A stretch of DNA of 64,000 nucleotides from a virus. Within the stretch, counting starts at the first letter, position 1; the number at the start of each line of letters is the position of its first letter. The stretch is taken from positions 1-64,000 of the IMG/VR virus record IMGVR_UViG_3300028584_000094; one strand, written 5' to 3'. Position numbers and translations under genes: made by a program. This document shows positions 10,601-64,000 of the stretch, piece after piece. The notes beneath the pieces were generated by a model. It was not told where the DNA came from. It saw only the letters and a program-made list of their open reading frames with translations, and searched no databases.

Positions 10601-13600
10601 GCTGGGTTCTTATCTGGACCAAACTTTGCGTCGAGATATGTAGCAACCGCGTTGAATTTATTACCACGTGATCTATCGAGAAGTTCCTGTATCCCATCCT
10701 TACTCATGAATCGTTTTGGAAGTTCAACAACACCAGTTTCGTCGAGGTTGTTTTTCACGTTTGACACAAAAGGCATGAGTGCTTTTTCAGAACCAACGAA
10801 AAGTTCTCCCGGTAACGCATCACCAACTTTAAACTTATTCGCTTTTATCAATTGAATTATTTCGGTCGGTACATGTTTAACAGGTGATAGTTCAGTGTCG
10901 TTGTCAAATGACGCATCGTCAATATCCTGTTCGAGTTCCATCGCAATGGCATCAATGTCTTCCGGCGCACCCGTTGAGCGTGATTCATCACCCGTGTCTA
11001 TGGTATCATCGCTGTCAACAACGTCAACTTCTCCGAACGTGGTTTCGATGTTGTCGTTTCTAAGTGACGCTTCGTTCATTAACTGTTCACCGGCGTTACC
11101 ACCATCGTCGGACCGGTAATCGAACGAATCGGTTTTTGTCATAACATCGTTAAGTCTGCTCATCTGCCATAGAGTCGTGTTTCGTAACTTATACCCTTTA
11201 TCGGTCAATTCCATGTACGACGTTGGTGATGGTACTTTCGTCGAGATTTTCTTTTCTCCTTGTGGGAGAGACTTGTTGTACTCTTTCGTGTCTTCAACAA
11301 ATTCAGTATTAAACGCTTCGAGTTCAGCTTCTGACATTGTAAAGTTAGCACCTGCCGAACTTGACGACGATGCTTCTTGTAAAAGTTTTCCCTTGTAGCT
11401 TTTCGGGTCAATACCAGTATCTCGAACGCCTTTAAAGGCGTTGACACCTTTCGACACTTCAGCGGGGATTACAACGTCGTTTGCCCCTGTTGATGTTATC
11501 GAATCGATGATTTTCTGCATTGAGCCAATATGGGTTCTCATGATGTCAGAATACCCGTTCTCCTCGACCATGTCTATTTTGGCGAGGAGATATGACACAA
11601 GTGCGTCAACGGTTTCTTTTCCTGTTTCAACCGTTTCAACGGACAGTGAGTCGATAATGGCATCCATGTTCACGGCGACATTGTGAACACCTGCTCCTAT
11701 CTTATTTTTGAGTGCATGTTCGGAAACTGTTGATTTCAGAGATTCCCACTCATCGTCGATAGGAAGAGAACCACTTGATGCGAGTTTCCGCATTCGAAAT
11801 TTTGCGGCAACTCTGCGAGCTAACTCATTACTCGCTTCTCGTTTTGCTCGTTCTTCCGCAGTCTCCGTTTCAACAGGTGGTAGATCTGTTTGTGATTTAG
11901 TTTCATCATTGACCTGCCTACCGTCAGATTGTTGTTCTTGGGTGTCGGTGGGTGGTTTCTTCTTTGGCGTGGTTGCAGTAGAGACCACTTGGTTTTCATC
12001 ACCTGTGTTGCTTTGAGATCGTCTCAGTTCTCGATAGTCAACGCCAGCATCAACCGTGACAGGGATCGTTACCCCAAAAGAGTCAAACAGGTCGGCAAGT
12101 TCCGTTATTTTTTCTCCATGACCGGTTCTACTTGTTTGTGGAGCATCATCTTTGATCTCGTTAATGAACATTACATGATGTAGAAGTTCGTGTGAGATCG
12201 CCGGGATAACCCCGTGGACCGTTGGAAACATATCTGGGTGAACGGAAATAAAAGATGGTGCTCCTATTTTACTCAAATACATCGCACCCCCATACCTCAA
12301 AACGGTTTCTCCTTCGGTGAGTCCTATTCCTACCTCCCCGACATCTGGTTCAACATCTGGAAACATCTTATCGAATGAAAACGATCCAGCCACTTTAGCT
12401 TTTATCGGTTTCAACCCTATTTGATACAACACGTAGTTCATCACCGAGACGATGTAGTTCGTCGCAAGTTCGAAGTTTTTGTAATCTATTTCTGAGTCTT
12501 CTGGGAGATCCGGTATCAATAGTAGTAAGCGTTCTATTTCTCTCACATAATCAGTGTCTATTTCCAACGGGTCAATATCGACCATTGCCCCTTCTATCGT
12601 GGCGTTGATCGTTTCTTCCATATCCAGCAACGTCGATTCGGTGAACTCTATTTGGGTGGGAGTTGTGTTTGCAACATCATAGCGTGTTCCAGTTTCTTCT
12701 TCGTTTCCGGGTTTTTTGTTTTCTTTCGCAGGACCGTCATTAGTGCCAGTTTTTCTTCGGTGTTCATTTGTTTGATTGGTTTCATTTTTAGTCTCTTCTT
12801 TTTTGGTTTTATGTTGACCGTTTTTGTCGATCGTTTCTGTTTTTACAGGTTCGACTTTAGTATCAGTTTTCGCAACTGGTTCTTTTACCGTTTTTGTTTT
12901 CACCTGCTCTTCGTTGAGTTTGTCGAACGCGGTAAGATCAATCTCTGGGATACCCATTTTTTTACGAACGAGATTTTCCCGGGAAAATTTAAGATCGCGA
13001 AGTTTTGCTTTCGCGGAATCATCCTGTGTCAGTTTCGACACGTTCGCGATGTCCTTATCAGCTTTTGCAATCATCTCATCGACATTTCCCGTTGGAACAT
13101 CGGTGATGACACCTTCCGTTTTGATCGCCGGATCGGTTGCTTTTTTGTATGACCGTTTGAACCCCATCTCTTTCAGATACATATCAACCAATCTGCGAGT
13201 ATCAGTTTTTGATGCTGATCGATCCTGCATCCGCTGAAGACCTTCATTCGCTTTTTTGATCACTTCACTATCTTCGGAAATTTTCTGATCGAAGAATTTA
13301 ATCTTATCCTGGTCCTCGGATTTAGATTTCATGTCTTTGTTGTCGATGATGCGTTGTTTCGCTTCATCGATGTTCTTATTCAACTGTGATTGAACTTTTC
13401 CCTTGCGACCTTCATACGTGTCGAGGTTATCCTTGCGCGTCTGGAGTTCAAGAGTGCGAGCTTCTTTCGCTTCTGCGTCTGTCAGTCGCGACATTTGACG
13501 TTTAGCGCGTTGATACGTGATCGCGTTCTTTTTAGCAACGAGAGAATCAATGTGTTCTTCCATTGCTAGTTTAGAATCATCATTCATCAGTTCTAACGAT

Positions 13601-25998: not shown

Positions 25999-26300
25999 TG
26001 GTTCACCACCGTATGCCAGTTATCCGCTATTGTTGCGTGGAATGTATATGCTTGTTGCATCTGTTCAACAGTAACAATACCTCTTTGAATGGCCTCTTGA
26101 ACTGATAGCGTTTCTAACATTCCATCATACCATTTACCACTCTTTTCATGCAGTGATAACCATAGAATATCCATCTTCCAATCCCCTTGCGGGGAAGCAA
26201 TATCCATTGGTTGTAAGCGGATCTCTTTGATTCTCATTAGTTCGTCATATTGATTAAGTCTCATCTTAAAACTCCTTTTATTAAATTGTTTATTGTACAC
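25995..26300 (-). CDS. hypothetical protein (possible tail-fiber accessory protein, by position)
   Basis: 101-aa ORF that overlaps the 3' end of the tail-fiber gene. The start may be the internal Met at 26262. Confidence 0.45.
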   Translation of the reverse strand: MYNKQFNKRSFKMRLNQYDELMRIKEIRLQPMDIASPQGDWKMDILWLSLHEKSGKWYDGMLETLSVQEAIQRGIVTVEQMQQAYTFHATIADNWHTVVNQ

Positions 26301-29300
26301 GCTGAATATGTAATTTGGAGTTAGTATAAGAGCCTACATCTATGATAACTTGCGTAGGCATCACTCCAGCACCTTGTTTTTTGTCTCCCCAGAAACGGTC
26401 AGAAACTCGACCGGTAGAATTAATGCCAGTAACAGTACCTTGAACTTGGATCATATTATTATTAGTGTTATACGTTATTGATATATCAACAAAGTATTGA
26501 CCTGATTCACAATTCAAATTATTACTTGTCCAGTCTTGAGAACCAGTAGTAACTAACGGTGTTGACGGGGTACTAATTGAGAATGACTCTGTTATCTTAG
26601 CAAAATAAATTGAATTATTGAAAGATAATAGGTTAGTATCCGCTAACAGTGACAATCTTCCAAAAATTCTATATGTAAACCCATTAGTGAATGTAAGTGT
26701 GCTGGTTCCTGTTGTTAATATAGTTGGATTATAAAGACCTAAACTGTTTAAATCATTAAAGTTTGTTAACGTTGTCTCAAAGCCACTAGTCGCTAATTTA
26801 GTTTCAGTTGAAACAGTATCTCTAATACTACCATCTCTTCTGAAATACAATTTAGGAGCAGTTGAGGAATCTAACCCAGAACCAGCAATACCAGTTCCAT
26901 ACATATACATAATTGCACCATTATTGGCATCAGTTAACGGCATTGTCAAGTCTGTAGCATAGCCTGCACTTGCTCTTACATTCCAAATAGACCCATTTTT
27001 AGCATGGTTGCTTGTAAGAATGGTAGCACCAACACCATTAAATATTGTGGAAGTAGTATTACCTTGTAATGCTTTAATTGTTGTTGAAATATCGACTATA
27101 TCAAACCATGAACTGAAGTTGGTCAAGTCAGTTGCAAGTGGTTGGTAACGAATATCACCTATGGATTTAACATCACCAAAGTTAGCCAATATTGCATTAT
27201 CGGCAAGAGCTGTTTTTGCTGCAGTTGACATTACATCGAGTAATGCCCCTGCTGGAGTAATAGTCAATGCTGTTATATCACCTGCCGCCTCAGTGTTATG
27301 AGTTATAACCCTTAGACCAATCTGATTCCCGAATGAAGTGGTAAACGCTTCTACTCTCGATCTTCGATTCACTGTCATTGTATTATTAGCCCAAAAGTTA
27401 ATTCCTCCCAACGGAAGATTTGAACCTACCGCCACATCTGGGCGGATGTTTAGAGCGCGATCCCCAAGTGAGTCTGTATACTGCCACACCGACATTTTTG
27501 AAAAAGTTTTCACACCAGCAACAGATTGATCGGTTGTCAAATTCACTGCGTTTGTATCAATCCCACTTCTTGATAAACTTGTTAGCTTAGTAGCTCCGCC
27601 ACCAATAACTACATTACCACTTGTGAGGGCAGTATCAATATAACCACCAGTTGTTATGACATTGGTAGTTGTTGCACCTGTATCAGTTACCAATTGTAAG
27701 TCAGGTGTTGTACCTGGTACAGTGGTAGATAAATTCTGCTGTCTATTTCCTATAATTTCTTGAACACTTACTAATTGAGCTTTACCAATTTGAGTATTAC
27801 TTGATTTTACAAAATATGTTAATTTCAAGAATGTATTAACTTCCTGGAGATTTAATTTCTTGAAAACAGGACAGTCATTACCCACTAGAGCACTTATAGC
27901 ATTAGATAGAGCTAGAGTATCACTAGCATTTGGTTTATTCCATTGTTGATATCCAGATGCTAAGAAATAACGATAAGATTCATCTAAGAAAGTTCCTGCT
28001 AACAAATACATATTGAAATATGTTCCGTTTATGACAGGAATGATCTCAGCAATTCCTCCACCAACAGTTGTTACTTGTTTTGTTGGATATGTAGTTCCAA
28101 CATTATACCCATGAGCATTGGTACTCACAAACGCAATATCGCCTACGGCATCAACTTGTATCTGCGAAAGTGTTTGGATTTCAGTTTTAGTTCTTGTATT
28201 CATGCTGATATCTTCATCTTGAACAACTACAGAGCTAAGCGAATAGCTATTAGATGCATCAGTAGTACCATTTAAAGTAAATCCAGCAATTATTGGTTTA
28301 GTTCTTAGAATAGTTCCTTCTGAATAATGAGCCGCATTTGTTGCCGCGGCATTTCTATAATGTCTATGACGTTCATCAAATGCTTTACTAATTCCGCCAT
28401 TTTTATGAACAATAATTGCAATAGGAGAAACGATTAGCTGATTCCAAGTAGTAGTTGAACCACTTATACCACCAGCTGAGTTCATTGAGACGAAATATAT
28501 TCCACTAGCTAATCCTGTTGTGTCAAACATCGGAGTAGTTGGAATAGTGTATTTAACCCCTGTTTGGTCATATATAGTTGTTGGTGCACTGAAATATAAC
28601 TCACCAGTAACTTCATCATAAATCAGATCAGATTCGTAGTTAGTTCCATCGTGATATACACCATGATAAGGTTGCTTATTGTTTGTTATATTGGTGGTCT
28701 CGGTTTTAGAATAAACGTCAATAACAGTACGAGCCTGTGTTGCCGTAAGATCTTCTGGGTCACCTGTTCCCGCTGTAGTTCTACCCTTAATTGTTGCAGT
28801 AGCCATGTTTGCAAGTTTTGCATTCGATACAACATCATTAGCAATAGTTAAAGCAGTTGCACCAGTAACATCACCTGTATGGGTGGCATTAGTTGTAACA
28901 TCCCCAACATACAATATATCACCGTCAGTAACCGCAGTATTGAACTGAGCTTTAGTTCCTGTAATCCCAACAATTGAAGTCTGATCACCACTGTTAGTTC
29001 CTGTAAGATTCAACATGGTTTTAACTGTAGAAACAGACAAATCTTCTACATTCCCTGTTCCTGCGGTGTTTCTACCTTTTATAGTAGTAGTGGCAACTTG
29101 GGAGAGTTTTGAGTTATCAACCGCGTTGGTTGCAATTGTTGTTGCGAAAGAACCTGTCCCAGACCCTGTAACATTTCCCGTAAGGGTAATGGTTTGATCT
29201 CCACTATTAGTTCCTGTTAAACCTAAATCAGTTTTAAGAGTTGCTAATGTTTGAACTTCGGGATCACCTGTTGATGCGGTTTTACGATAGAATACTGTTG

Positions 29301-30636
29301 ATGTTGCAACATCAGCCATCTTAGCAAGTGTAACAACATTGTTTGCTATCGTCAGAGCTGTTGCTCCTGTAACATCACCTGTGTGGGTCGCATTTGTGAC
29401 TTTCGCAGTGTTCGCAAGCACCGATGCGTTATTCGTTATCGTGGTTTGAATATCGCTAATAGTAGAAGACAACTGTGTTCCGGTGTGGTTAGCACGGTCA
29501 CGATCAGTTGTGGAAGCACTCGTGACATCGCTCAATCGAGCGGCGTGAGCTGGGAGCGTTGGAGCAAGCGGTAACAACGCAGACACCATGACAGTATCAT
29601 TACCCTGCTTACCGAGATACACATCATCGCCAAGGTCACCAACATAAGTATCGCCTGTGAGATTTCCAATGTAAGTATTCCCACCAGCTGTTTTAAAGTA
29701 AGCATCCAGCGAAGTAATTGCACCAACACCGCCGTCGGTAATCGCGTACCACCCACTGTTCATCCATCCGGTTGCACTATCGCTTACATTTATAGATCCG
29801 AGAGCACCAGTTGATCCGGCGGATGTAGATGACACAATCGGTCTAAGTGGATCGGTGTTGTCAACCGTTACACCAGTTCCAGCAACGACTTCAGCAATCC
29901 CAACGGTTGACGTGAGTTGGCGCATTGTGATGTATGAATCAAGGTCCGCTTCATCTATTGCTTCAGTGGCAACAAGTTTTCCCTTGACGCCAAACTTGGT
30001 TGATCTAATCCCAGCTTCTTCTCGGAATAAGAAACCCGCTTTATCACTGTTCGTCCATTCGTTCGTAAGAATCTTAATGTTTCTCACAGAAGTTGATGAA
30101 GAACCAAGTTTCGACGAAACGGTCATACCGTCACCAGTCAGAGCAACTGATCGACTGTCACGCCCACCCGTTGATGATTGCATACCAAACCCGATACCCT
30201 CATACCGGTAACCAGACATGATAGGTACGTATTTAAAGTCAAACGCTTGAGATTTTGTCCCGATTGTATTCATAACGATTGATGTTGAATAATCATTGAA
30301 GATGAATCTCGCCCCGAGAGTCGTTTCGTCGGATGCGCTTGTTTTCAAGCGACCGAACAATTGAGAACCATCGTCGGTATCCATACCAACACCAAGTTTT
30401 TTACCGTTGGTGTTCGACACGAACGTGGTGCTACCAAACTCGTTCGAGTGGTATGTTTTCGCACCGCTGACATCATCAACAGATGCTTGAATTGCAGTCT
30501 TGTCCCACGCACCATCGACACGTCTAACCCAGAAATCATTCGCCGCATCGATGTCGAATCCGACCTCATACCTCATACCAAACTCTCTCAACCTCGCAAG
30601 AGTATCATTGATCATAATACCGTGTAGTTGTTTCAT
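26290..30636 (-). CDS. tail fiber/tailspike protein with internal repeats
   Basis: 1448 aa, T/S/G/N-rich. Three copies of a module ending (T)AGTG(D/N)(P/V)EDL...L(N/G)LTGTNSGDQT. The position after tail-tube-like genes fits a fiber. Confidence 0.7.
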   Translation of the reverse strand: MKQLHGIMINDTLARLREFGMRYEVGFDIDAANDFWVRRVDGAWDKTAIQASVDDVSGAKTYHSNEFGSTTFVSNTNGKKLGVGMDTDDGSQLFGRLKTSASDETTLGARFIFNDYSTSIVMNTIGTKSQAFDFKYVPIMSGYRYEGIGFGMQSSTGGRDSRSVALTGDGMTVSSKLGSSSTSVRNIKILTNEWTNSDKAGFLFREEAGIRSTKFGVKGKLVATEAIDEADLDSYITMRQLTSTVGIAEVVAGTGVTVDNTDPLRPIVSSTSAGSTGALGSINVSDSATGWMNSGWYAITDGGVGAITSLDAYFKTAGGNTYIGNLTGDTYVGDLGDDVYLGKQGNDTVMVSALLPLAPTLPAHAARLSDVTSASTTDRDRANHTGTQLSSTISDIQTTITNNASVLANTAKVTNATHTGDVTGATALTIANNVVTLAKMADVATSTVFYRKTASTGDPEVQTLATLKTDLGLTGTNSGDQTITLTGNVTGSGTGSFATTIATNAVDNSKLSQVATTTIKGRNTAGTGNVEDLSVSTVKTMLNLTGTNSGDQTSIVGITGTKAQFNTAVTDGDILYVGDVTTNATHTGDVTGATALTIANDVVSNAKLANMATATIKGRTTAGTGDPEDLTATQARTVIDVYSKTETTNITNNKQPYHGVYHDGTNYESDLIYDEVTGELYFSAPTTIYDQTGVKYTIPTTPMFDTTGLASGIYFVSMNSAGGISGSTTTWNQLIVSPIAIIVHKNGGISKAFDERHRHYRNAAATNAAHYSEGTILRTKPIIAGFTLNGTTDASNSYSLSSVVVQDEDISMNTRTKTEIQTLSQIQVDAVGDIAFVSTNAHGYNVGTTYPTKQVTTVGGGIAEIIPVINGTYFNMYLLAGTFLDESYRYFLASGYQQWNKPNASDTLALSNAISALVGNDCPVFKKLNLQEVNTFLKLTYFVKSSNTQIGKAQLVSVQEIIGNRQQNLSTTVPGTTPDLQLVTDTGATTTNVITTGGYIDTALTSGNVVIGGGATKLTSLSRSGIDTNAVNLTTDQSVAGVKTFSKMSVWQYTDSLGDRALNIRPDVAVGSNLPLGGINFWANNTMTVNRRSRVEAFTTSFGNQIGLRVITHNTEAAGDITALTITPAGALLDVMSTAAKTALADNAILANFGDVKSIGDIRYQPLATDLTNFSSWFDIVDISTTIKALQGNTTSTIFNGVGATILTSNHAKNGSIWNVRASAGYATDLTMPLTDANNGAIMYMYGTGIAGSGLDSSTAPKLYFRRDGSIRDTVSTETKLATSGFETTLTNFNDLNSLGLYNPTILTTGTSTLTFTNGFTYRIFGRLSLLADTNLLSFNNSIYFAKITESFSISTPSTPLVTTGSQDWTSNNLNCESGQYFVDISITYNTNNNMIQVQGTVTGINSTGRVSDRFWGDKKQGAGVMPTQVIIDVGSYTNSKLHIQRVQ
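28715..29400 (-). repeat. three tandem about 70-90-aa protein repeats inside the tail-fiber gene
   Basis: NATHTGDVTGATALTIAN(N/D)VV...AK(M/L)A...AT(S/A)T occurs twice almost verbatim (starts near 29397 and 28893), with a more divergent copy between them. Confidence 0.7.
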
Positions 30637-39599: not shown

Positions 39600-39915
39600 G
39601 CGTCAAAACCTTCGGTGTATTTTTTGTCTCTATACGCTTGGAGTCGCGCTTATTTATTAAGTTTAGTTCGATGAAATCTCCTCTAACTATGGCACTTGTA
39701 ACATTACCACAGGAAGGGCATGGAGGGAATGTAACGCGTGCGTTTCCGGGAGTTTCGATAAATGCCAATATGCGATTACACGTGTGGAATTCTACAACGG
39801 TTTTATCCGTTGTCTTTCGATAATTTCTTCGACCCGCACACTTAATAATCTCCAATGGCACCTCCTCGTACACGTAATTTACAATAAAACACAACACAAT
39901 TGCAATTTTTACCAT
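39583..39915 (-). CDS. hypothetical Cys-containing protein with hydrophobic N-terminus
   Basis: 110 aa, overlapping the terminase stop and the portal start. KC...HTC...CPSC could be a zinc ribbon. Confidence 0.4.
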   Translation of the reverse strand: MVKIAIVLCFIVNYVYEEVPLEIIKCAGRRNYRKTTDKTVVEFHTCNRILAFIETPGNARVTFPPCPSCGNVTSAIVRGDFIELNLINKRDSKRIETKNTPKVLTHDKNR

Positions 39916-41957
39916 TCTTCTGATGGATTATATCGAACCGGGTTTATTAGAGACTTCTGATTTTTATACCCAGACCCCGGCTGTTTTATCTTCGGAGCCG
40001 GTCGTTCTATTTTTTCCCGAAGGAATGACATCAGATTAACCATGGCATAACATAGCCCGTAATTAACCTCAATCACTGCTCTGGATTCCCGAACATTCCA
40101 CTTTTCCAACTGATTTATAAGAGCACCACATTTGCTATCGATGATCACTCGTTTGTCTGAGATCATTTGATTCAGCAATTGTGTGCCACCCAATTCATCA
40201 TATCGTCTATTTTTCTGAACTCGAACCCCTAATTTCCGATATTGGGTGACCAAGTCAGATCCGAGATCACCAAACATTCGGTCATTCCCGATACAGATAG
40301 AACTCGTTGAAACGGATCGAACATGGTTTATCAGAGAACCAACAGAGAAGATATTGTCATCACCGGCGTAATCTGTGTGAACCGTTAATCTGAACCCGTC
40401 CCACGTAGCGTGAACAAGTGACGCATACATATCACGTGAATACCATGTTGACACAAATGTTTCCGAATACGCATCGATAGACACATTGTTTTTAACGGTG
40501 TTACTATCGAGTTTATCGAAATCCTTCAGTGTTGTTCGTTCTGGTTTTTTCTGAGCGAAACATAACACGAGTGAGTCTGCTAAGTCGGGAGATGCTTTAA
40601 ACTCCTTCTTGTAAACAGATTTCGACTCGATCATAATTCTTCCGCCGGGGAGTTTGAATCGACGCGTTGATAATTCTGCGGCGAGGAAACGTGATTCTGG
40701 TAATTGAATTTTGTCGATGTTGTCTCTTACAAAACCCCACATTTCGGAAGCTGAATCGTGATACAAATCTTTCTGGTCAGCCGCGCCACCAAAGTTACAA
40801 GGAACGACGTTTATGTTGTTCTCTCTATCCAAGTTAAGGTAATCTGTACATCCTCCTCCAACACCAGTGTCGTCCACTTTTACGTCGATTATTCCCTGGT
40901 AATCTGTTTTATTTCGAATCGTTTTCACGAGAGCGAGTGTCATATCTACAACATCATTCACCCCAGTTTTTGATGCTGTTACCTGTGGGTGAACATACCA
41001 TCCTTCTCGCCACGTCAACACAGTTAAGTCAGCTCCGTAGCGAGCAACGTCAACGCCGATCTGAATTGGAACTCCACGATCAACGTCTCGCATCATACAT
41101 GCTTCAACATCAGACAGAGAAATGAGCGAGTCGCTATTTCCTTTCGGGAACAGCCCTCTTACAGATACACGGATAACGTCATGTTCCCAACCATACCGTT
41201 CGATAAGTTCAGCCGTTTTTTTCTTGTCTACGAACGGAGAATCGATCGATGAGAATTGCAGAGTCTTGTAATGCTTCGCGTCTTGGTTGTGTGAGTCGTA
41301 GAACAGTCCGTCGGTTTTTGTTCCATTACCCATCAAAAGGAGGATATTTACACCTTTAGATGGATCACCGGTTCGAGTCGTGTCGAGAGCATCAATAATT
41401 TCATCGGGGACACCAGATGCTTCGTCAATGAGGAAAAGCATATTGTCCTCGTGAAGACCCTGCATGTTTTCTTTGCGTGTTGATGTTCGAGGTTCAGCCC
41501 ACCAGTTTGATTTATACGCATCATCTTTCAGATACATTCTTTCCGATGTTATTTCAAACAGTGGGGAAACTAGAGATTGTTTCATCCATTTTGAAACCTC
41601 TGTCCACAGAGCTGATTTCAACTGTGGAAATGATGGAGCAGTGGCTACAACTTTCGGCAAATGGAACACTGAGACGAACCAACACATGAGCAACGCTTCA
41701 ATAGCCGTTTTTCCCAAGCCTTTTCCTGCAACGATGGATATCTTGGTCTCTCCACCATCTACAGCGTCCGCAACGGCTTGTAAGATGGCTTCCTGTTGAT
41801 CTGATAGGTATAGATCCCCACCATCATATACGGAATTTTCATGAAACATGATTTCGTAGATAAACGCCGATGGATTTCTTTGGTAAAACGCTAACGTCTC
41901 TTCATCAAAGAAATCACTAAAATTTACTTTTTCTTCCGGCGTTTTTATTCGACCCAT
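39909..41957 (-). CDS. terL: terminase large subunit
   Basis: 682 aa. Walker A ISIVAGKGLGKTAIEA and Walker B MLFLIDEASGVPDE. The C-terminal half has acidic nuclease-like motifs (IGVDVARYG, VKVDDTGVGGG). Confidence 0.8.
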   Translation of the reverse strand: MGRIKTPEEKVNFSDFFDEETLAFYQRNPSAFIYEIMFHENSVYDGGDLYLSDQQEAILQAVADAVDGGETKISIVAGKGLGKTAIEALLMCWFVSVFHLPKVVATAPSFPQLKSALWTEVSKWMKQSLVSPLFEITSERMYLKDDAYKSNWWAEPRTSTRKENMQGLHEDNMLFLIDEASGVPDEIIDALDTTRTGDPSKGVNILLLMGNGTKTDGLFYDSHNQDAKHYKTLQFSSIDSPFVDKKKTAELIERYGWEHDVIRVSVRGLFPKGNSDSLISLSDVEACMMRDVDRGVPIQIGVDVARYGADLTVLTWREGWYVHPQVTASKTGVNDVVDMTLALVKTIRNKTDYQGIIDVKVDDTGVGGGCTDYLNLDRENNINVVPCNFGGAADQKDLYHDSASEMWGFVRDNIDKIQLPESRFLAAELSTRRFKLPGGRIMIESKSVYKKEFKASPDLADSLVLCFAQKKPERTTLKDFDKLDSNTVKNNVSIDAYSETFVSTWYSRDMYASLVHATWDGFRLTVHTDYAGDDNIFSVGSLINHVRSVSTSSICIGNDRMFGDLGSDLVTQYRKLGVRVQKNRRYDELGGTQLLNQMISDKRVIIDSKCGALINQLEKWNVRESRAVIEVNYGLCYAMVNLMSFLREKIERPAPKIKQPGSGYKNQKSLINPVRYNPSEEW

Positions 41958-56038: not shown

Positions 56039-57103
56039 ATGAGTGATTTATCAGTAGTAAGACAAACATCTGCAATGGTGTTCCAACCAACAAGTATCGC
56101 GGAAGCTCTTTCGCTTGCCGAGACACTTTCAAAATCAATCCTTGTCCCTCAGAATTTCCGTGGAAAACCCGATGACGTGTTCGCCGCTATGATGCTGTCT
56201 GCTGAACTTGGTATCAGCCCAATGCAGGGGATTCAGAACATCGCAGTGATCAACGGTCGTGCAACTGTTTGGGGAGATATGGCTATCGCTCTCGTGAAAT
56301 CGTCGCCACTGTGTGAAGGTGTCGAAGAGTCTATGGATCTTTCAAACCCACAGAATCCTATTGCAACGTGTGTCGCCCGTCGTAAAAATATGCCGGATGT
56401 GGTGTCTACGTTCTCATGGGGTGAAGCTGTGGCGGCTGGACTAACAACCAAAGGCGTCTGGCTTACCTATCCTAAACGTATGCTTCAGATGCGAGCACGT
56501 GGTTTTGCTCTTCGCGACCAGTTCGCCGACCTCATGAAAGGTCTTATCACTTCTGAGGAAGCACAGGACTATCCGGTTCGCGACAGTGTAACCAATGACG
56601 TGCTCACACCTGTTGGTGAACCTACTCCACTACCGGAAGCGACGACATCATCTGAAGTTGTCGGTGGTTTCATTCAGCCGGAAGCTAAGAAACGCGCGTC
56701 ACGTACGAAGAAAAAGGAGGAACCAACCGAAGCAGAATTGGTGACCGAATTTGTCGAAGAATCTATCGACGTAACCAAGAGTTTTGAACAAGCAGAAGAC
56801 ACAGGGTTTGGAACTTTGACACCTGTAACAGAACATGTTTCTCAAGCGGTTCAGCCGGTAGCACAAGTTGCGACACCTGTTCAGCAAGCAACGCCAAGTC
56901 CATTTGGTAACCTGTCTCAACCAACAACGTCTACTCTTTCACCGGATTTCCAGAAAATCGTGGATAAGTTTGGTTCGATCGACAATGCTCAGACGTGGTT
57001 GGTTGCTAATGGTATCCTTGAAGCGGGTCAGAAACTTGCAGAGATGGAAGAAGTTCACATCAAATTGTTTGTGAATGAATACCTTCCGAATATCAATCTC
57101 TAA
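56039..57103 (+). CDS. RecT/Red-beta (Bet) superfamily single-strand annealing protein
   Basis: AELGISPMQGIQNIAVINGRATVWGD and WLTYPKRMLQMRARGFALRDQFAD parallel lambda Bet YGLNPW...VVGVDGW and WQSHPKRMLRHKAMIQCARLAFG. Confidence 0.7.
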   Translation: MSDLSVVRQTSAMVFQPTSIAEALSLAETLSKSILVPQNFRGKPDDVFAAMMLSAELGISPMQGIQNIAVINGRATVWGDMAIALVKSSPLCEGVEESMDLSNPQNPIATCVARRKNMPDVVSTFSWGEAVAAGLTTKGVWLTYPKRMLQMRARGFALRDQFADLMKGLITSEEAQDYPVRDSVTNDVLTPVGEPTPLPEATTSSEVVGGFIQPEAKKRASRTKKKEEPTEAELVTEFVEESIDVTKSFEQAEDTGFGTLTPVTEHVSQAVQPVAQVATPVQQATPSPFGNLSQPTTSTLSPDFQKIVDKFGSIDNAQTWLVANGILEAGQKLAEMEEVHIKLFVNEYLPNINL

Positions 57104-57109
57104 TTAACA

Positions 57110-57127
57110 GGGGGTGGAAACGCCCCC
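57110..57127 (+). terminator. G-rich stem/GAAA-tetraloop hairpin
   Basis: GGGGGUG-GAAA-CGCCCCC directly after the annealase stop, with no U-tract. Confidence 0.35.
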
Positions 57128-57159
57128 ACAATAATCCCTCAACCGAACAGGGTTTGGTT

Positions 57160-58299
57160 ATGTCTACAGAAAAACAACACCATAAGTGGTCGCCATCTAA
57201 ATGGTCGGCTTTCGTAAACTGTCTTGCTTACAAATCATCCGATAAATCTTCTGACGCGGCGTATCGCGGAACTCTACAACATTCTTACCTTGAAGCGATT
57301 GGAACCAACAACACGGACGAGAAACTTCGTCTTGAAATGTTGCTCACCGGAACTGAGATTGAGAATGTTATGTTCGTATATGGTCGTGTTCGCGAAGCTG
57401 TGGTCGCTCTTGGTGATGGCGTTGAAGTGCTTTGGGAACAGTCATTCGTTTCCATGGGAAAACACTTCACACCTATTCCCGGGCACGCAGACATCGCCAT
57501 CGTGAAAAACGATGAGATCTGGATCATCGATGCTAAGTTTGGGGCGGTTAAAGATTACGACCCACAGTTGATCGTTTACAGTCTCGGAGCCATGCAGAAG
57601 TTCAACAAACCGTCTGCTCGGTATTGGATCTTATACGGACAAGAAAAGAAAAGCGAAGCAGGGACTGTCACTCGTGAGGAGGCTACAACTTTCTTCAACG
57701 ACATGGTCGCGAAACTTATCGAAGCCGAAAAGAACCCAGCAACTGTTAAGCGGTCAACGTGTACTTGGTGTCAGTATTGTGAAAATCGAAACACTTGTGG
57801 GGAATTTATGAAAGAAATCGGAAATACGGTTGCACTTGCCGGTGTAACAGAACAGGTTGTCCCAACCGCTATCGACCTTGAAACGTGTGACATTGATCAG
57901 CTTGGTAAGTTGGTTGAAGCATTGTCGCAGGTTGAAAAGTTCCAAGATAGTGCGAAGGATGCGTTGAAACGCAGAATCAAAAATGGTGAAGCGTCTTCGG
58001 TGTATAAGATCCAATCGAAAAGCGGGTCATTGGCAATCACTGACATCCATGGTGTCGCGGGAACTCTGGTTCAGTTGTCCGGGAAAAGCCATTACGATGT
58101 TAATGAAGCACTGTTGGATGCCGGTAAGTTCAGCCTATCCGGTGTAAGAAGTTTCCTGTACGGTTCTCGCTCTGAAGAGAAAGCCGTTAAGGACGAATTT
58201 GAATTGAAATTCGCGGACCATCTCTCACGTGGGAATGCCACTGAGAGTCTTGTTAAACTGTCGGCTAAAGAAAAAGCCGCATTGCTTAAAGGAGAATGA
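57160..58299 (+). CDS. PD-(D/E)XK exonuclease, Cas4/RecB-like with Cys cluster
   Basis: GHADIAIV...IWIIDAKFG (D...D-x-K), QLIVYSL (QxxxY), N-terminal Cys (VNCLAY) plus C-terminal CTWCQYCENRNTC, as in Cas4/AddB Fe-S nucleases. Confidence 0.7.
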   Translation: MSTEKQHHKWSPSKWSAFVNCLAYKSSDKSSDAAYRGTLQHSYLEAIGTNNTDEKLRLEMLLTGTEIENVMFVYGRVREAVVALGDGVEVLWEQSFVSMGKHFTPIPGHADIAIVKNDEIWIIDAKFGAVKDYDPQLIVYSLGAMQKFNKPSARYWILYGQEKKSEAGTVTREEATTFFNDMVAKLIEAEKNPATVKRSTCTWCQYCENRNTCGEFMKEIGNTVALAGVTEQVVPTAIDLETCDIDQLGKLVEALSQVEKFQDSAKDALKRRIKNGEASSVYKIQSKSGSLAITDIHGVAGTLVQLSGKSHYDVNEALLDAGKFSLSGVRSFLYGSRSEEKAVKDEFELKFADHLSRGNATESLVKLSAKEKAALLKGE

Positions 58300-59135
58300 T
58301 TATGTCATTAGTTACGTTTAACCACGAAGATGCGATGGGTGCTGATAACGGTGGTGGTGGAATGACAAAAGGCGGTGTCTACGGTGGAACCATCAAGACC
58401 TGCAAGGTAATCAAAACCGATTACGATTCACGTGTCAACCTTGAGTTCTGCATCGAAAACACTGTTCGATTTGATGGTAATGGTTGGGTGAAAGAGGCTT
58501 CAACCAATAACAAAATGCGTATCCAGATTGTCACAAAAGAGGGCAAGTCTATGTACGGTGCAGACAAAATCAAAGCTCTCCTTGGTATGAACAGTTTGCA
58601 GGGCACACAGGAACAGCAGATGCAGGATTCCGAGGGTAAGGTGTTCACTTACGTGGTTAATCTTCACGGTGTTAAAGTTGCGTACTCGTGTTTCCGTAAG
58701 GATCGTTGGTATGAAGACAAGTTGAACGGGCGACCAACAGGTCAGATGAAACTTGCGTACGACTTCGATCACCTGCACTTCTTCGATCCTGCCACATTGA
58801 AGACGTATTCCGAAACAGTCAACAAGTCTGAACCGAAAGCGATTCTTCGCCCGATCCAAGACGAGTTACTCGACCCAACGAAACCACCCGTTGCTCCATC
58901 TACTCTCGCTCCTCAGCAGGGTGGTGGATTCCCCGGTGGAGGGTTTGGTGGAGCATCTGCCGCTCCCGTCGGTGGAAATCCTTTCGGTGGAACAACTGTG
59001 GCTCCAAATACGACAGGTGCGTTTGGTGGTCAACCATCAATGACTCAACAGCAGGTTGCACATGGTGATGCGATGAACTATGCGTTCATCACGGGTATGC
59101 AGAATGCTACCGCTCCCGGTGGCGTATTCGGTTAA
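58296..59135 (+). CDS. possible ssDNA-binding protein with Gly-rich C-terminal low-complexity tail
   Basis: 279 aa. The position after the annealase and exonuclease, and the tail PQQGGGFPGGGFGGASAAPVGGNPFGGTT. There is no acidic SSB tip, so the call is weak. Confidence 0.3.
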   Translation: MIMSLVTFNHEDAMGADNGGGGMTKGGVYGGTIKTCKVIKTDYDSRVNLEFCIENTVRFDGNGWVKEASTNNKMRIQIVTKEGKSMYGADKIKALLGMNSLQGTQEQQMQDSEGKVFTYVVNLHGVKVAYSCFRKDRWYEDKLNGRPTGQMKLAYDFDHLHFFDPATLKTYSETVNKSEPKAILRPIQDELLDPTKPPVAPSTLAPQQGGGFPGGGFGGASAAPVGGNPFGGTTVAPNTTGAFGGQPSMTQQQVAHGDAMNYAFITGMQNATAPGGVFG

Positions 59136-59144
59136 TCGTTAATC

Positions 59145-59166
59145 GGTGGGGGTGAAAGCTCCCACC
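59145..59166 (+). terminator. G-rich stem/GAAA-tetraloop hairpin
   Basis: GGUGGGGGU-GAAA-GCUCCCACC (9 bp with two G.U), with no U-tract. Confidence 0.35.
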
Positions 59167-59182
59167 ATCAAAAGGAGGAACA

Positions 59183-59938
59183 ATGAGCAAAGACAAAATC
59201 ACCAAGGGAAAAGTCAAGTATCACGGCGTTGTTGACATTCCCGCATTGATCGAACCAGTCGCAGAACTCAGACGAGTTGTCCATGAAGTGTTGAAAAAGT
59301 ATGAAGGGTACAACATGACGTTTGACGGTATCGAAGCACCCGATTTCAAAGATGCTATTCAACGCCATCTGAACCAAATGGAATACCCGTTTGCAATCGA
59401 CGAAGAAACAGGGTGTCCACATATTTGGTCGATTATGTTCAACGCTATGGTTCTTGAAATCAAACGCAGAACGATATGTGATCGGGGAATTGAAAAGCCG
59501 TATCAACCAATCGACACACCGAAACCAGTGAAGAAAGTCATTGAACCCAAGCGGGTAATAAGAGTTCCGTTCGAGCAACCGCTAAAAACTGACAACTTCG
59601 ACGACTTTAAACAAATTACCACCGATGTTATCAATCTCGACAATCCACTGTTTGTTGCGATGGGTCTTGGTGTTGATTTGTCTTCTATCTATTTCGACCC
59701 AAATACTTCAGATAAAGAAAAATCGGACATCGTTGCGGGTGTTTGGTTTGGTCGAACTTATGGAAATCCATCCGAGATGTCATGTGATCACCTAGTATCT
59801 CTCGTGATGGAACATGTAGATGTCGATCTTCAATCGAAGGTTCTAATCGGTGCAAACAAAAAACGAAAAATACCGTACACGAATGTGATGCTTGACGATT
59901 CAATCGATCTAATCTTATCACAAAAACAAAAAGGATAA
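59183..59938 (+). CDS. hypothetical protein
   Basis: 251 aa, SD AAAGGAGGA. Confidence 0.6.
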   Translation: MSKDKITKGKVKYHGVVDIPALIEPVAELRRVVHEVLKKYEGYNMTFDGIEAPDFKDAIQRHLNQMEYPFAIDEETGCPHIWSIMFNAMVLEIKRRTICDRGIEKPYQPIDTPKPVKKVIEPKRVIRVPFEQPLKTDNFDDFKQITTDVINLDNPLFVAMGLGVDLSSIYFDPNTSDKEKSDIVAGVWFGRTYGNPSEMSCDHLVSLVMEHVDVDLQSKVLIGANKKRKIPYTNVMLDDSIDLILSQKQKG

Positions 59939-59942
59939 TAAA

Positions 59943-62900
59943 ATGGACGCGATTCAAGAAATGTTATCGGCACGGGCTGTTTACTTCGACATTGAAACAC
60001 ATGTGAAAGGAGACCGACCAAGTACAAACGATGAACCCGTTTTTGTTGGATTCAGATCTCCCGGAGGTGAACGGATCATGTATCACATTTCTGAACGCGA
60101 TCAGATCCAAGCGGTGCTTGATTATGCCCGTGTTTTTATCGGGCATAATATCCGCGACTACGACTTCCCGATCATGGAGCAAGCGGGATTCATCATGACG
60201 AGTCCGGGTAAGAACGGGAAGACCTACAGCAAGGTAATCATCGACACTCTACAAATCATGGCGATCAGAGCGAAACCTATGCTCTATTTAGATTTGTCAC
60301 TTGCACACCTTGGTCTTCGGTCTCTTTGCGAACGGTTCAACCTTGAACATCAAAAAGGTGACATCGATTATGATATTTTCAAACAGGTGTCATGGACACA
60401 GGAAGAACTCGCCGAGATAAAAACATACCTGTTCGGCGACCTTGACTCTGGTTGGGGATTGTTTGTTTACCTGTACGAGTTTTTCTACGGGTTCCGTCAG
60501 TATGTTGACGAAAAATCACAGAGACTTTTTCACTGGCTCCGTTCTTCAGCAGGAGCTATCACATACAAGATCATCTGCAACATCGCTGGTATTCCAGAAG
60601 AGTACGACGAATCAATCGACGACACTCTTAAAAATGGAGTGCTGTACGAGGGTGCGTATGTTGCTCTCCCATTCATTGATCGTATCCAAGGAAATTTGTA
60701 TGTTGTAGACTGGGCTTCGTTGTACCCACACATGTACATGCTCGGTAATCTGTATTCACAGGTTGCTCCGGGTACTCCGGGGGCGTGGCATGGTGGTGAA
60801 ATATTCAAACCGATTGAAGCAGGTGACGAAGACGGTATCCAAGGATGGTACACACGAACACCCGGCAAAATTGAAATCGCTCAACGAAGAATTTACACTG
60901 ACCGTGTTCACCATAAAAACCTTCGAGACACGTTCGAAAAAGGAACGCCCGATTACATCAGAGAGGACGCTGTTCAGTTGGCGACTAAGATCGTGTCTAA
61001 TACGTGTTTCTCGGTTGATACAGAAATTCTTACCGTTGAAGGTATAAAACTTGTCTCCGATGTGAAAGAAGGAGACATGGTTTATTCGATCAACAAAATA
61101 ACGAACAGTGTTGAAATCAAGAAAGTAACGGGGACTATATCATTCGAGTATCATGGTGATATGATTCGTTTCAAATCGGATCAGTATGACCTACTTGTTA
61201 CACCGGATCATGATATGGTAATAACATCGCGATCCAATCAGAAAATACAAACCATTAAAGCATGGGGAATATCTAAATCTGGATTCAAGTTCCCACCACA
61301 TCGAGGTGTTATCGGAACTCCAGTTGACTATGAATCAATTGAATATTCCGAATGGTATCTTCGAGGCATGTACTTGGCTGATGGGCATGCTCGAAACGTG
61401 ATACGAAATGGTGTATCGAACGGTTTTGAGGTTTCGTTTTCAAAGTATAAAGATGTTTATCCGATTGTGTGGGGAAAAATCGAACAACACCTTATCAATA
61501 TAGGGTCTAGGTTTAGCTACGACTCCAACAGAAAAGGATTCCATGTATACTCGAAGGAGTATTATAATGACATCGTTGACTCGTGTGGAAGAACCGCAGA
61601 AAAACGAATCATAGAGTTCCCAACAACTCATACGTCGAGACAAGCACTTTTCGATGGGTTGTATGACGGAGACGGATCCAAAGGAACTGTAAGACAGTTT
61701 AGCACTAAATTGATCGGTTTGCGGGATGATTTCATTCGGTTGGCGACAGAACTTGGTATTAAGTGGCAATATCGGTTTGATAGTGGGATCCATCGTGTTG
61801 GTCTTAGATCTGAATTTGGAACTCAGACATGGTTGAAATCGCGAAACATGTCAGTCGAACAATACGATGGGATTGTTACTTGCTGTGAAGTGGAAGACAA
61901 CCACACCGTTCTCGTTGGGAGAAATGGTAAGTTTGAATGGAGCGGGCAGTGTTACGGAATCAGTGGTAGCCCACGATTCAAGAACGTGTTCAATGTGATA
62001 ACTGCTTCCGACTGCACAGCGATGGCGAGGATGTCAATTAAGCACGCAAGAAAACGAATTCGCGATTTTGGGTACATCCCATTATACACCGATTCAGTTC
62101 TTGGTGATTCGGTTATCGTGGTTCGATTGGATGACATCATTCACTCGATCCGTTTTGACGAGTTTGAACATTGGTTGAAAATGCATGAAGTTGTTTACAC
62201 CGTTGAAAAAGATTTCGCAAAAACGCGTTATGAAATTGACGATGACTTGTTCACCCCAAGCATGAACGCTAATCGAGAAGAGGAGTGGAAACGTATAACA
62301 CAGTTAATCGTTCACCCAACGATGAAAAAGTGTTACACTGTTAATCATATTCGAGGATCAGTATCAACAACAGGCGATCATTCGTTGATAGACTTCAATA
62401 GAATTTCCGGTGAAAACTATAAGATGGTTGAAGTTAAGCCACTGGACGCAACACGCGTCATTTACAGTGGCAGTGACCATATGCCATCGGTTGACTCCGG
62501 TGACGAGTTCACCACATTGCTTATGGAATTTCTTGGGTTCTACGTTTTCCGTGGGAAAAAGGAGGATAACAAAGTCTACATTCGTACGGGTAAAACAAAT
62601 CGAGAAAAAAATCTGATTATGGAAAAATTGATCTATCCGATCATTGGTTACTTTGATGGTCGTATCGACACGATGGAAACACGTGAGACTTCTAACATGG
62701 TGTGTTTCAGATCGGTTAAACTCGCCGCGTTAATCCATTCGATGATGGGCGATGAGAAACATATTCCAGAATCTCTTATGAATGTTGACTCGTGGAAATT
62801 TCTTGCTTTCCTTCGCGGTGTCTTCACTGCGATAGGCATCAAAAACAAAGTGTCTCCGATGTTCCAGTGTTCATCCGAACGTAAGTTGAATGATCTTGCT

Positions 62901-64000
62901 CGTGTGATGCGCAGACATTGCATGTTGCCGAGCGTCGGTGTCATGGCTGATGGTGTAGTAACTCTATCTGTCGCATCGTGGCATTCGAATTGGTTCATTC
63001 ATAACGTGGGATGTATTGATGCTGAGAAGCTCGTTCCTCTTCGAGGTAAACGATTGAAGAAATATGGTCAAGGTAAAGTGACATCGGTTGTTGAACTACC
63101 AATCGAAATGCGCAAAGTGTACGACATCGAGGTTGAAGACAATCACACGTTCTTTGCGAACGGCGTGTTGGTTCACAACACTGACTCGGTTTACCTTCAT
63201 GACCCGTATAACGACCCGAAACGACTAGCTGAAGTATGTCAACTGATCTCAAAAGAACAGCAGGAAGACGCAAATATTTATATCGACTCGCATGACTTAG
63301 AAATAGAAACTGCGATCAGTCAGATGTATTTCTTCCGCAACGATAAAGGTCAATATGTTAAAAAATTCTATGCTTATGTTAAGCCCGGGAAGAAAGGACC
63401 GGAAGTCGTTCTGAAAGGAATCAAACTAGTCAAAGGAGACTGTTCAAAACTTGCACTTGAAGTTTACGACAGATACATAAAACAAGATCTACTCGACTAT
63501 GAGCTGTGTCAGTATTCTCCCGAACAAGTGTTTTCGTGGGTTAAACAACTCTTCTTGGAACAACCAGATCTCTTACAGAAACGGTATAGACCGAAGAACC
63601 CAGCGTCGTACAAACGAGGTAAGAATGGTGAAGAGTCAACAGCTCTCATTCATTCGATCGCTAAACGGTATGGAGCAGGTGAACTCATGTTGATCCCGAA
63701 CGTGGCTATTGGTTGCGGGAAAGATAAACACTATGCGAAACAAGAAGAACTGATTGAAGAGTTTGGAGACAATTGGGTAGATTATGTTCTCGTGTACCCA
63801 ATTGTAGAAGAGTTGAAAGTATTCATCCCGTGGAATCAACGCGGGATGATCAAGAAACTCCAACCGAAACCAGAACTTAAAATGTACCACGATGGTTCCA
63901 GAATGATAGAAACTCGAAACCCTGTTGTGAAACGCAGATGTCAATCAAACGGGTTCAGAGAATTGCAACGGAAAGAATTTCTCACTCAACGTAAAAACGG
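59943..64000 (+). CDS. family-B DNA polymerase precursor with two inteins (3' end outside the window)
   Basis: No stop from ATG 59943 to the window end (1352 codons), and not in the track. ExoI YFDIET, ExoII GHNIRDYDFPIM, motif A VVDWASLYPHM, motif B KIVSNT|CYGISG, motif C PLYTD|TDSVYLH, then VKKFYAY and LKGIKLVKGD. Confidence 0.85.
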   Translation, partial: MDAIQEMLSARAVYFDIETHVKGDRPSTNDEPVFVGFRSPGGERIMYHISERDQIQAVLDYARVFIGHNIRDYDFPIMEQAGFIMTSPGKNGKTYSKVIIDTLQIMAIRAKPMLYLDLSLAHLGLRSLCERFNLEHQKGDIDYDIFKQVSWTQEELAEIKTYLFGDLDSGWGLFVYLYEFFYGFRQYVDEKSQRLFHWLRSSAGAITYKIICNIAGIPEEYDESIDDTLKNGVLYEGAYVALPFIDRIQGNLYVVDWASLYPHMYMLGNLYSQVAPGTPGAWHGGEIFKPIEAGDEDGIQGWYTRTPGKIEIAQRRIYTDRVHHKNLRDTFEKGTPDYIREDAVQLATKIVSNTCFSVDTEILTVEGIKLVSDVKEGDMVYSINKITNSVEIKKVTGTISFEYHGDMIRFKSDQYDLLVTPDHDMVITSRSNQKIQTIKAWGISKSGFKFPPHRGVIGTPVDYESIEYSEWYLRGMYLADGHARNVIRNGVSNGFEVSFSKYKDVYPIVWGKIEQHLINIGSRFSYDSNRKGFHVYSKEYYNDIVDSCGRTAEKRIIEFPTTHTSRQALFDGLYDGDGSKGTVRQFSTKLIGLRDDFIRLATELGIKWQYRFDSGIHRVGLRSEFGTQTWLKSRNMSVEQYDGIVTCCEVEDNHTVLVGRNGKFEWSGQCYGISGSPRFKNVFNVITASDCTAMARMSIKHARKRIRDFGYIPLYTDSVLGDSVIVVRLDDIIHSIRFDEFEHWLKMHEVVYTVEKDFAKTRYEIDDDLFTPSMNANREEEWKRITQLIVHPTMKKCYTVNHIRGSVSTTGDHSLIDFNRISGENYKMVEVKPLDATRVIYSGSDHMPSVDSGDEFTTLLMEFLGFYVFRGKKEDNKVYIRTGKTNREKNLIMEKLIYPIIGYFDGRIDTMETRETSNMVCFRSVKLAALIHSMMGDEKHIPESLMNVDSWKFLAFLRGVFTAIGIKNKVSPMFQCSSERKLNDLARVMRRHCMLPSVGVMADGVVTLSVASWHSNWFIHNVGCIDAEKLVPLRGKRLKKYGQGKVTSVVELPIEMRKVYDIEVEDNHTFFANGVLVHNTDSVYLHDPYNDPKRLAEVCQLISKEQQEDANIYIDSHDLEIETAISQMYFFRNDKGQYVKKFYAYVKPGKKGPEVVLKGIKLVKGDCSKLALEVYDRYIKQDLLDYELCQYSPEQVFSWVKQLFLEQPDLLQKRYRPKNPASYKRGKNGEESTALIHSIAKRYGAGELMLIPNVAIGCGKDKHYAKQEELIEEFGDNWVDYVLVYPIVEELKVFIPWNQRGMIKKLQPKPELKMYHDGSRMIETRNPVVKRRCQSNGFRELQRKEFLTQRKN
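61005..61949 (+). mobile_element. intein 1 (315 aa) with LAGLIDADG homing endonuclease, in polymerase motif B
   Basis: Starts CFSVDTEILTVEG; block B VTPDHDM; LAGLIDADG motifs GMYLADGHA and GLYDGDGSKG; block F CCEVEDNHTVLVGRNG. It ends ...FEWSGQ followed by Cys (CYG). Confidence 0.8.
62094..63179 (+). mobile_element. intein 2 (362 aa) in polymerase motif C, with degenerate LAGLIDADG-like core
   Basis: Starts SVLGDSVIVV (Ser1); block B TTGDHSL. It ends VYDIEVEDNHTFFANGVLVHN followed by Thr (TDS). The endonuclease-like motifs FLGFYVFRGK and FLRGVFTAIG lack the acidic residues. Confidence 0.8.

Follow-up and report, generated by a model that had tools for sequence, protein, structure and literature searches.

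Can a viral gene in which two catalytic motifs of a DNA polymerase are each broken by a long insert still encode a replicative enzyme? This question is raised by a frame on the plus strand at the end of a 64,000-nt stretch of DNA, positions 1 to 64,000 of the IMG/VR record IMGVR_UViG_3300028584_000094 (hereafter, the window). A preliminary description of this sequence had noticed the frame, assigned it to the family-B DNA polymerases (PolB) and proposed that it was split by two inteins. The analysis reported here makes it very likely that a small replicative DNA polymerase of family B is encoded by this gene as a precursor of 1359 aa, that the precursor carries two inteins which would be removed by protein splicing, and that these inteins have the histories set out below.

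When the window was translated, 1352 codons without a single stop were read from position 59943 to position 64000, in agreement with the first description of the frame. As stops represent ~5% of random codons, an open frame of this length could not be attributed to chance. The closest in-frame stop on the 5' side was located at 59910 and the first start codon after it is the ATG at 59943; this predicted start is supported by an AGGA sequence found ~8 nt upstream and by the N-termini of the homologues. The frame runs off the end of the window, and this alone would explain why it is missing from the track of open reading frames (ORFs). The complete protein (P0041 of a public representative protein library, 1359 aa) was identical to the translation over the window part, and the window edge cuts off seven residues (GVEAIEE) and the stop codon.

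Pfam analysis of the uncut precursor detected both a polymerase domain (DNA_pol_B, PF00136, 30.1 bits for a cut-off of 23) and a splicing domain (Intein_splicing, PF14890, 46.9 bits for a cut-off of 35.8). A search with intein profiles had been advised in the preliminary description; its outcome was positive at this level and also with the clade profiles, which matched inteins of the PDB (see below). After in-silico splicing, the conceptual extein, which counts 675 aa within the window, matched DNA-polymerase families of PHROG (best, phrog_262, 2e-18), and all the motifs expected of the family, Exo I-III, motifs A, B and C and KKxY, were recovered as had been claimed. The N-extein (59943-61004, aa 1-354), identified by its invariant alignment columns, contains Exo I (59985-60002), Exo II (60141-60176), Exo III (60426-60449) and motif A, DWASLYPH (60708-60737), and ends with the first half of motif B, KIVSNT (60987-61004). 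The middle extein (61950-62093, 48 aa) extends from the +1 residue Cys670 and the second half of motif B (CYGISG) to the first half of motif C (YIPLYTD). The C-extein (63180-64000, cut by the window end) starts at the +1 residue Thr1080 with the second half of motif C, TDSVYLH (63180-63200), and covers the thumb region as well as KKxY (63357-63377). Invariant or near-invariant positions of the alignment comprised D16/E18 (Exo I), N69/D74 (Exo II), Y162/D166 (Exo III), D256/S259 (motif A), K349/N353/Y671/G672 (motif B), D717/T1080/D1081 (motif C) and KKxY.

Removal of the two inserts, intein 1 (61005-61949, plus strand, 315 aa) and intein 2 (62094-63179, plus strand, 362 aa), produced the junctions ...KIVSNT/CYGISG... 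and ...YIPLYTD/TDSVYLH..., where the slash marks the insertion point. Among 5.8 billion proteins, searched by means of a word index, 34 relatives of the extein were found, 10 of which were aligned with the window protein (11 sequences). Eight of these ten homologues are ~600-650 aa long and uninterrupted at both sites (KIxINTxYGISG, LYTDTDSVY), and the other two (P0001 and P0002) carry an insert at the second site only; intein 1 was absent from all ten. Since the homologues are contiguous across both sites, the insert boundaries are exact to the codon, and the coordinates first assigned to the inserts were left unchanged.

These boundaries coincide with splicing nucleophiles, Cys355 and Cys670 for intein 1, Ser718 and Thr1080 for intein 2. 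Block A starts with CFSVDTEILT in intein 1 (61005-61034) and with SVLGDS in intein 2 (62094-62123), and block B contains TPDH (61191-61220) and TGDH (62361-62390), respectively, each TxxH being invariant within its own family. Block F was located at 61863-61916 in intein 1 (...IVTCCEVEDNHTVLV, with a Cys at F:4) and at 63114-63158 in intein 2 (KVYDIEVEDNHTFFA). Both N- and C-terminal splicing blocks, which the preliminary description had attributed to the two inserts, are thus present, with one amendment: block G of intein 2 (NGVLVHN, 63159-63179) ends with the textbook His-Asn, followed by Thr, but intein 1, which is class-1-like, ends with Gly-Gln (...GKFEWSGQ, 61926-61949; full end GRNGKFEWSGQ), followed by Cys. 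When the families of the two inteins were compared by hhalign, they matched with 98.6% probability over 252 columns, indicating that both inserts share a Hint + LAGLIDADG architecture. Beyond what had been described before, the present work brings out this Gly-Gln end, a one-residue shift of the intein 1 site, the very probably dead LAGLIDADG domain of intein 2, and the fact that the arrangement is not unique.

Intein 1 and its insertion site

Intein 1 contains two LAGLIDADG motifs, YLRGMYLADGHA (61356-61391) and LFDGLYDGDGSK (61647-61682), in which the acidic residues are kept (...MYLADGH and ...LYDGDGS) and are invariant or D/E in the clade. Judged by these motifs, its endonuclease looks intact, as had been proposed. 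A profile made from four sequences of the clade matched PI-PkoII (2cw7) in the PDB with an E-value of 2.6e-17 over the endonuclease domain; the alignment spans both LAGLIDADG helices and conserves the acids (YLADG vs YVSEG, YDGDG vs FIGDG).

The closest relatives of intein 1 were found in P0042 (58% identity), P0044/L019 (42%) and P0035/L020 (39%), all of which end with GRNGKFxWxGQ. Full-length homology, at 24-29% identity, also exists with phage inteins such as the annotated intein of the Corynebacterium phage P1201 thymidylate synthase. The HMM (hidden Markov model) matches and a neighbour-joining tree placed intein 1 within a clade of PolB inteins located in motif B; in this tree, which is rough and carries no bootstrap support values, the window and P0042 group with L019/L020 and next with L024/L036. 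Membership of class 3, an idea suggested by the block F Cys, was rejected as Cys1 is present and the B:12 Trp and G:5 Thr of the WCT triplet are missing.

Some members of the wider group lie in other genes. In P0035 (= L020), the intein occupies residues 67-392 of a non-polymerase protein (...GNEDYG/C...GQ/SWGASKW), and related copies that end with Asn were seen in other host genes at L021, L023, L051 and L053.

Scanning of metagenome contigs gave 42 loci. Among them, ~30 with a readable C-terminal junction end with Gly-Gln, nearly all within motif B of a PolB, and one locus (L055) comes from Halapricum. In a scan of genomes, the same type of intein, KV(I/V)MN/CF...GQ/S(L/Y)YGV, was detected in the PolB of Natrarchaeobius versutus, Halorubellus salinus and Halapricum hydrolyticum; a scan of genome contigs with the intein 1 alignment, based on other peptide patterns, found distant inteins only. 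The haloarchaeal intein is the polB-b allele catalogued in Halobacteria (Soucy et al. 2014, PMC4071816), and, when Gln is the C-terminal residue, splicing has been demonstrated experimentally for other inteins (PMC4031507). Conservation of the Gly-Gln end in ~30 inteins, including those of cultured haloarchaeal PolBs, implies that this terminus must be competent for splicing.

The insertion point of intein 1 does not fall between the N and the S/T of motif B, as a pol-b intein does, but one residue later. In the majority of clade members and in the haloarchaeal genomes, the site is KxxxN/S with a +1 Ser. The shifted site KxxxN(T/A)/C, with a +1 Cys, was observed in the window, P0042, L018, L024, L036, L038 and L054; L034 has NA/S, and L019/P0044, although within the PolB family of the window, lies at N/T. 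As the K-x3-N-x-x-Y-G spacing is kept after in-silico splicing in all cases, the one-codon shift is real and not an artefact of alignment. That N/S is the usual pol-b site was taken from the haloarchaeal and metagenomic sequences examined here; a literature search for a residue-level description of the Thermococcus pol-b site returned nothing usable.

In intein-less relatives, the x position preceding Tyr-Gly in motif B is mostly occupied by Met, Ile, Ala or Leu. Cys at x is otherwise confined to intein-bearing alleles, apart from the intein-less homologues P0005 and P0006 (KILINSCYG and KILINTCYG), in which it may be the footprint of precise intein loss. In the window, the corresponding intein-less DNA site is AAGATCGTGTCTAATACG joined to TGTTACGGAATCAGTGGT. 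By co-conversion of flanking extein sequence during homing, both the displaced insertion point and the codon for Cys would travel with the intein, and the Cys at x in the window would have been acquired in this manner. We tentatively propose, giving the idea somewhat less than an even chance, that a Gln-terminated sub-lineage of motif-B inteins slid its insertion by one codon, from N/S or N/T to N(T/A)/C, and that the +1 Cys found at the variable x position was brought in by the intein itself. If this is true, sliding freed the intein from the Ser/Thr of the host and could allow it to invade PolBs with Ala at that place (L024, L036), and the sub-lineage appears to have spread into the PolB family of this phage. 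It would represent a natural case of site sliding with an imported nucleophile and an odd active centre (no penultimate His, Cys at F:4, terminal Gln).

Very long PolB frames (1650-2173 aa) were also seen, at L028 and L030. The latter (contig JGI1684J13235_1000281) has a Gln-terminated intein at a motif A-like site (...VLDLA/C...GQ/SLYPMS) and a pol-c intein; it probably represents an archaeal PolB holding at least three inteins.

Intein 2 and its endonuclease domain

Intein 2 is inserted exactly at the pol-c position (LYTD/S...HN/TDS), which corresponds to YGD/TDS in archaeal PolI and in Mimivirus PolB (Ogata et al. 2005, PMC549080). An exhaustive HMMER search with intein 2 retrieved 107 relatives. 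The best, besides the protein of the window, were P0001, P0042 and P0002, which belong to the same PolB family and carry the insert at the same site; the PolBs P0043, P0044, P0046, P0048 and P0051 ranked next. When the profile of the family was compared with the PDB, it matched PI-PkoII (5.8e-27), the Aes123 PolB1 intein (7.4e-20) and PI-PfuI (3.2e-12). An AlphaFold (AF2) model obtained with a nine-sequence alignment had a predicted local distance difference test (pLDDT) of 82 and a predicted template modelling score (pTM) of 0.78. Foldseek related this model to the endonuclease-bearing inteins TliVMA, PhoVMA, PI-PkoII, PI-PfuI and PI-SceI (E 4e-16), and its middle domain to the LAGLIDADG enzyme I-DmoI (target-normalised TM-score, TMt, ~0.72).

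In this domain, the catalytic acids are missing: the first motif, FLGFYVFRGKK (62529-62561), and the second, FLRGVFTAIGIK (62808-62843), read GFYVFRG and GVFTAIG, with Arg and Ile in place of Asp. Asp occupies both of these positions in P0043, P0044 and P0051 (GFWIGDG / LFSxDG); in P0046 and P0048 it is found in the second motif, the first having Asn instead (GYWIGNG); and P0001, P0002 and P0042 are degenerate like the window. As the Hint + LAGLIDADG fold is kept and both catalytic Asp residues are lost, the predicted endonuclease of intein 2 is very probably inactive. Intein 2 is an old, vertically inherited pol-c-site intein, and would be retained for the sole reason that motif C would not survive its imprecise removal.

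Proposed splicing and homing, and the alternatives

The splicing chemistry of both inteins would follow the class 1 pathway (PMC4031507), as suggested by the presence of the required residues. After translation, the Hint domain of each intein would excise itself. For intein 1, a thioester would form at Cys355, the N-extein would be moved to Cys670, and Gln669 would cyclise instead of the usual Asn; T354 would thereby be joined to C670 and motif B restored (KIVSNTCYG). For intein 2, an ester at Ser718 would be followed by movement of the chain to Thr1080 and by cyclisation of Asn1079, assisted by His1078, joining D717 to T1080 and restoring motif C (YTDTDS). The end product would be a 682-aa polymerase. 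Since the precursor has 315 residues inserted within motif B and 362 within motif C, both events are presumably needed for activity, and it is a sound inference that replication depends on two splicing events. Besides splicing, intein 1 would use its endonuclease to cut the polB genes without an intein of relatives that infect the same cell, and would be copied into them, possibly helped by the RecT/exonuclease pair of the phage itself.

The relative P0042 made it possible to compare the two inteins within the same gene. This protein, encoded in a syntenic context, has both inteins at the same sites in an open frame. Its identity with the window protein was 50% for the extein, 58% for intein 1 (54% in the endonuclease part) and 31% for intein 2 (25% in the endonuclease part). 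The G+C content at third codon positions (GC3) was 0.38 for intein 1, 0.48 for the N-extein and 0.46 for intein 2. Both inteins are likewise present in the metagenomic PolBs L019, L028, L030, L046, L047, L054 and L055. Scanning IMG/VR with the PolB alignment gave 16 relatives, not including the contig of the window itself; 15 look intein-less by match length, and one (L015) has a longer match of 2.8 kb. Taken together, the states of the LAGLIDADG motifs, the identities and the GC3 values would fit the homing cycle, intein 1 being a constrained or recently spread active element and intein 2 a fixed and decaying one.

Several observations weigh against this interpretation. Splicing, endonuclease activity and homing are all things that we infer. 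Intein 1 analyzed in isolation stayed below the Pfam cut-offs (LAGLIDADG 19.5 bits for 22.5; intein 20.3 bits for 35.8), and its single-sequence AlphaFold model was unusable (pLDDT 35), leaving the profile alignments as the support for its fold. It lacks the penultimate His, and the Asp at F:4 is replaced by Cys (Cys-Cys in the window), which means that its chemistry may be slow or conditional. The identity of intein 1, higher than that of the extein, could be explained by constraint and not by recent transfer. Moreover, the sequences recovered included no intein-less allele nearly identical to that of this phage, and intein 1 is therefore only a potentially mobile element at present.

Some of these features could also be explained if the inteins were real and at least one of them, most plausibly intein 1, did not splice, the gene being a decaying pseudogene and the phage being replicated by another polymerase. 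This is unlikely. The residues of blocks F and G of intein 1 are indeed atypical and Gln-terminated inteins can be slow (PMC4031507), but the Gly-Gln end recurs throughout the ~30 inteins mentioned above, those of cultured haloarchaeal PolBs included. The 4-kb frame is intact, the catalytic residues of polymerase and splicing are all kept, and a relative with only 50% extein identity retains both inteins and an open frame. As for the other polymerase, the genome may extend partly outside the window, yet no second polymerase was seen among the ORFs scanned in it.

A role of intein 1 as a redox-gated splicing switch, and not as a purely selfish element, appears still more doubtful. In this scheme, disulfides involving Cys1, Cys+1 and the Cys-Cys of block F would block polymerase activity as long as the cytoplasm is not reducing. 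Cys355, Cys670 and Cys647-Cys648 are located at or next to the splicing centre, and switching by disulfides is on record for the Pab PolII intein, also Gln-terminated, as far as the reference list of PMC4031507 indicates. However, several members of the clade have Ser or Asn in place of the block F Cys and the +1 residue is mostly Ser, so that the cysteines do not form a conserved set, and selfish persistence explains the data without regulation. Finally, the view of the inserts as in-frame accessory domains or intron-encoded endonuclease ORFs, for which only the sub-threshold PF14890 scores of the isolated inserts speak (20.3 and 34.7 bits for inteins 1 and 2), is effectively refuted by boundaries placed exactly at nucleophiles inside invariant catalytic motifs, by Hint blocks A, B, F and G, by profile and fold matches to solved inteins, and by the complete lack of stops and frame changes, which intron ORFs would not require.

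The reading of the gene as a PolB precursor with two inteins has some practical and general consequences. Gene callers and window-based tracks miss or mis-size such a replicase, the predicted product being 682 aa and not 1359 aa. That a bacteriophage-type genome has inteins at both of the sites classically used in archaeal PolBs favours the view that viruses carry intein alleles from one domain to another. Within a single gene, the homing cycle would be seen at two points, with intein 1 as an invader that is apparently active and intein 2 as a fixed intein whose endonuclease is very probably dead. Protein engineers might be interested in a Gly-Gln intein with Cys1 and Cys+1 and in the cysteine-independent Ser1/Thr+1 intein 2, although no new principle is involved.

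Genome context and known systems

The source had been regarded as a phage, and the gene content of the window specifies a tailed-phage genome, with a P22-like portal, a large terminase (TerL), a major head (capsid) protein, a primase/DnaB-type helicase and a DnaC-like loader. Upstream of polB, a replication and recombination block on the same strand (56039-59938) forms an operon-like arrangement with it. This block comprises a RecT-like annealing protein (56039-57103), a DUF2800/PD-(D/E)XK exonuclease (57154-58299), an ORF with no assigned function (58296-59135) and, directly 5' of polB, an ORF (59183-59938) with a dATP/dGTP diphosphohydrolase N-terminal domain (PF18909, 34 bits for a cut-off of 27). 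The PF18909 domain belongs to phage nucleotide-pool or modified-base pathways (MazZ-like). A PurZ-like (Z-genome) gene gave no match among the ORFs scanned, the scan not being exhaustive.

At the other end of the window, a primase/DnaB-helicase fusion is encoded at 19-1755 (plus strand); the weak Fibritin_C match of Pfam at its residues 450-520 (22.9 bits for a cut-off of 21) is probably spurious. The contig of P0042 (L060, 67.7 kb) shows the same gene order, GP88, DUF2800 nuclease, PolB, small ORF and primase-helicase, the last being located at 12503-14350, one small ORF after polB. This shared order suggests that the window covers almost all of a genome of ~65-68 kb in circularly permuted form, in which polB runs into the genes of the window start. 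Among the 50,697 GenBank phages of INPHARED, no match was obtained by megablast, with the gene or with 24 kb of the window, or by tblastn with the extein, and the phage thus has no close sequenced relative there.

TerL (39909-41957, minus strand, 682 aa) shares ~40% identity with the terminases of Clostridioides, Enterococcus and Bacillus phages, over residues ~36-478 only, its C-terminal ~200 aa having no match. The presence of an intein in this long TerL was considered and rejected, as the homologue match at 36-478 is contiguous and the intein HMMs match the PolB frame only. Two giant ORFs of the structural region, both on the minus strand (7624-16362, 2912 aa; 26290-30636, 1448 aa), had no PHROG match.

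Among the closest known parallels for the whole gene is the Thermococcus litoralis (Vent) polymerase, reportedly described by Perler et al. in 1992 with two inteins, Tli Pol-1 and Pol-2. One of these LAGLIDADG inteins interrupts motif B (Region III, KxxxNSxYG) and the other motif C (Region I, YxDTDS), and both must be removed to give the active enzyme; the gene is on an archaeal chromosome, and both inteins end with His-Asn and have active endonucleases. Unlike Vent, the window is a bacteriophage-type genome, its intein 1 shows the Gly-Gln end and the one-residue shift, and the endonuclease of its intein 2 is degenerate.

Among solved structures, PI-PkoII (Thermococcus kodakarensis Pol-2) is the best match for both intein families, with block B, the LAGLIDADG helices and block F aligned. 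Identity with intein 2 on the structure alignment is ~15%, and intein 1 is matched by profile only. PI-PkoII is 537 aa long, with extra domains and a His-Asn end. For intein 2, a second comparison is offered by Aes123, an Aeromonas phage. Its PolB1 split intein (PDB 9hth) has been shown experimentally to splice (PMC10189870, PMC11923092). Like intein 2, it has Ser1 and lies near motif C, and its profile match is strong (7.4e-20); unlike intein 2, it is naturally split, cysteine-less and devoid of endonuclease. The C-extein of the crystallised construct starts with SVYL, which suggests that the Aes123 site is two residues further downstream. With the pol-c inteins of archaeal PolI and Mimivirus (PMC549080), intein 2 shares the site Y-x-D/T-D-S, and it differs from them in having lost the catalytic residues of the endonuclease.

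Intein 1 resembles the haloarchaeal polB-b inteins by its start, CF(S/T)xDTE, its block B, TP(D/N)H, its two LAGLIDADG motifs, its end, ...DNHTV(L)xGRNGKFxWxGQ, and its location in motif B. The haloarchaeal copies are ~390-420 aa long and inserted at KV(I/V)MN/S with a +1 Ser, whereas intein 1 has 315 aa and lies at KIVSNT/C with a +1 Cys. Splicing was demonstrated for the Gln-terminated inteins Pab PolII, Mma PolII and CIV RNR (Mills/Perler review, PMC4031507); these belong to other intein families in other host genes, and intein 1 further differs from them by the lack of the penultimate His and of the F:4 Asp.

PolB inteins in motifs B and C are known in haloarchaea (PMC4071816), and inteins are known in core genes of phages, including crAss-like phages (PMC7886860). 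Motif-B and motif-C PolB inteins, viral pol-c inteins, phage PolB inteins and Gln-terminated inteins are thus all known already, and the features of this locus that are mildly unusual, and no more than that, are the displacement of a site by one codon, with its imported +1 Cys, and the two contrasting endonuclease states within one gene.

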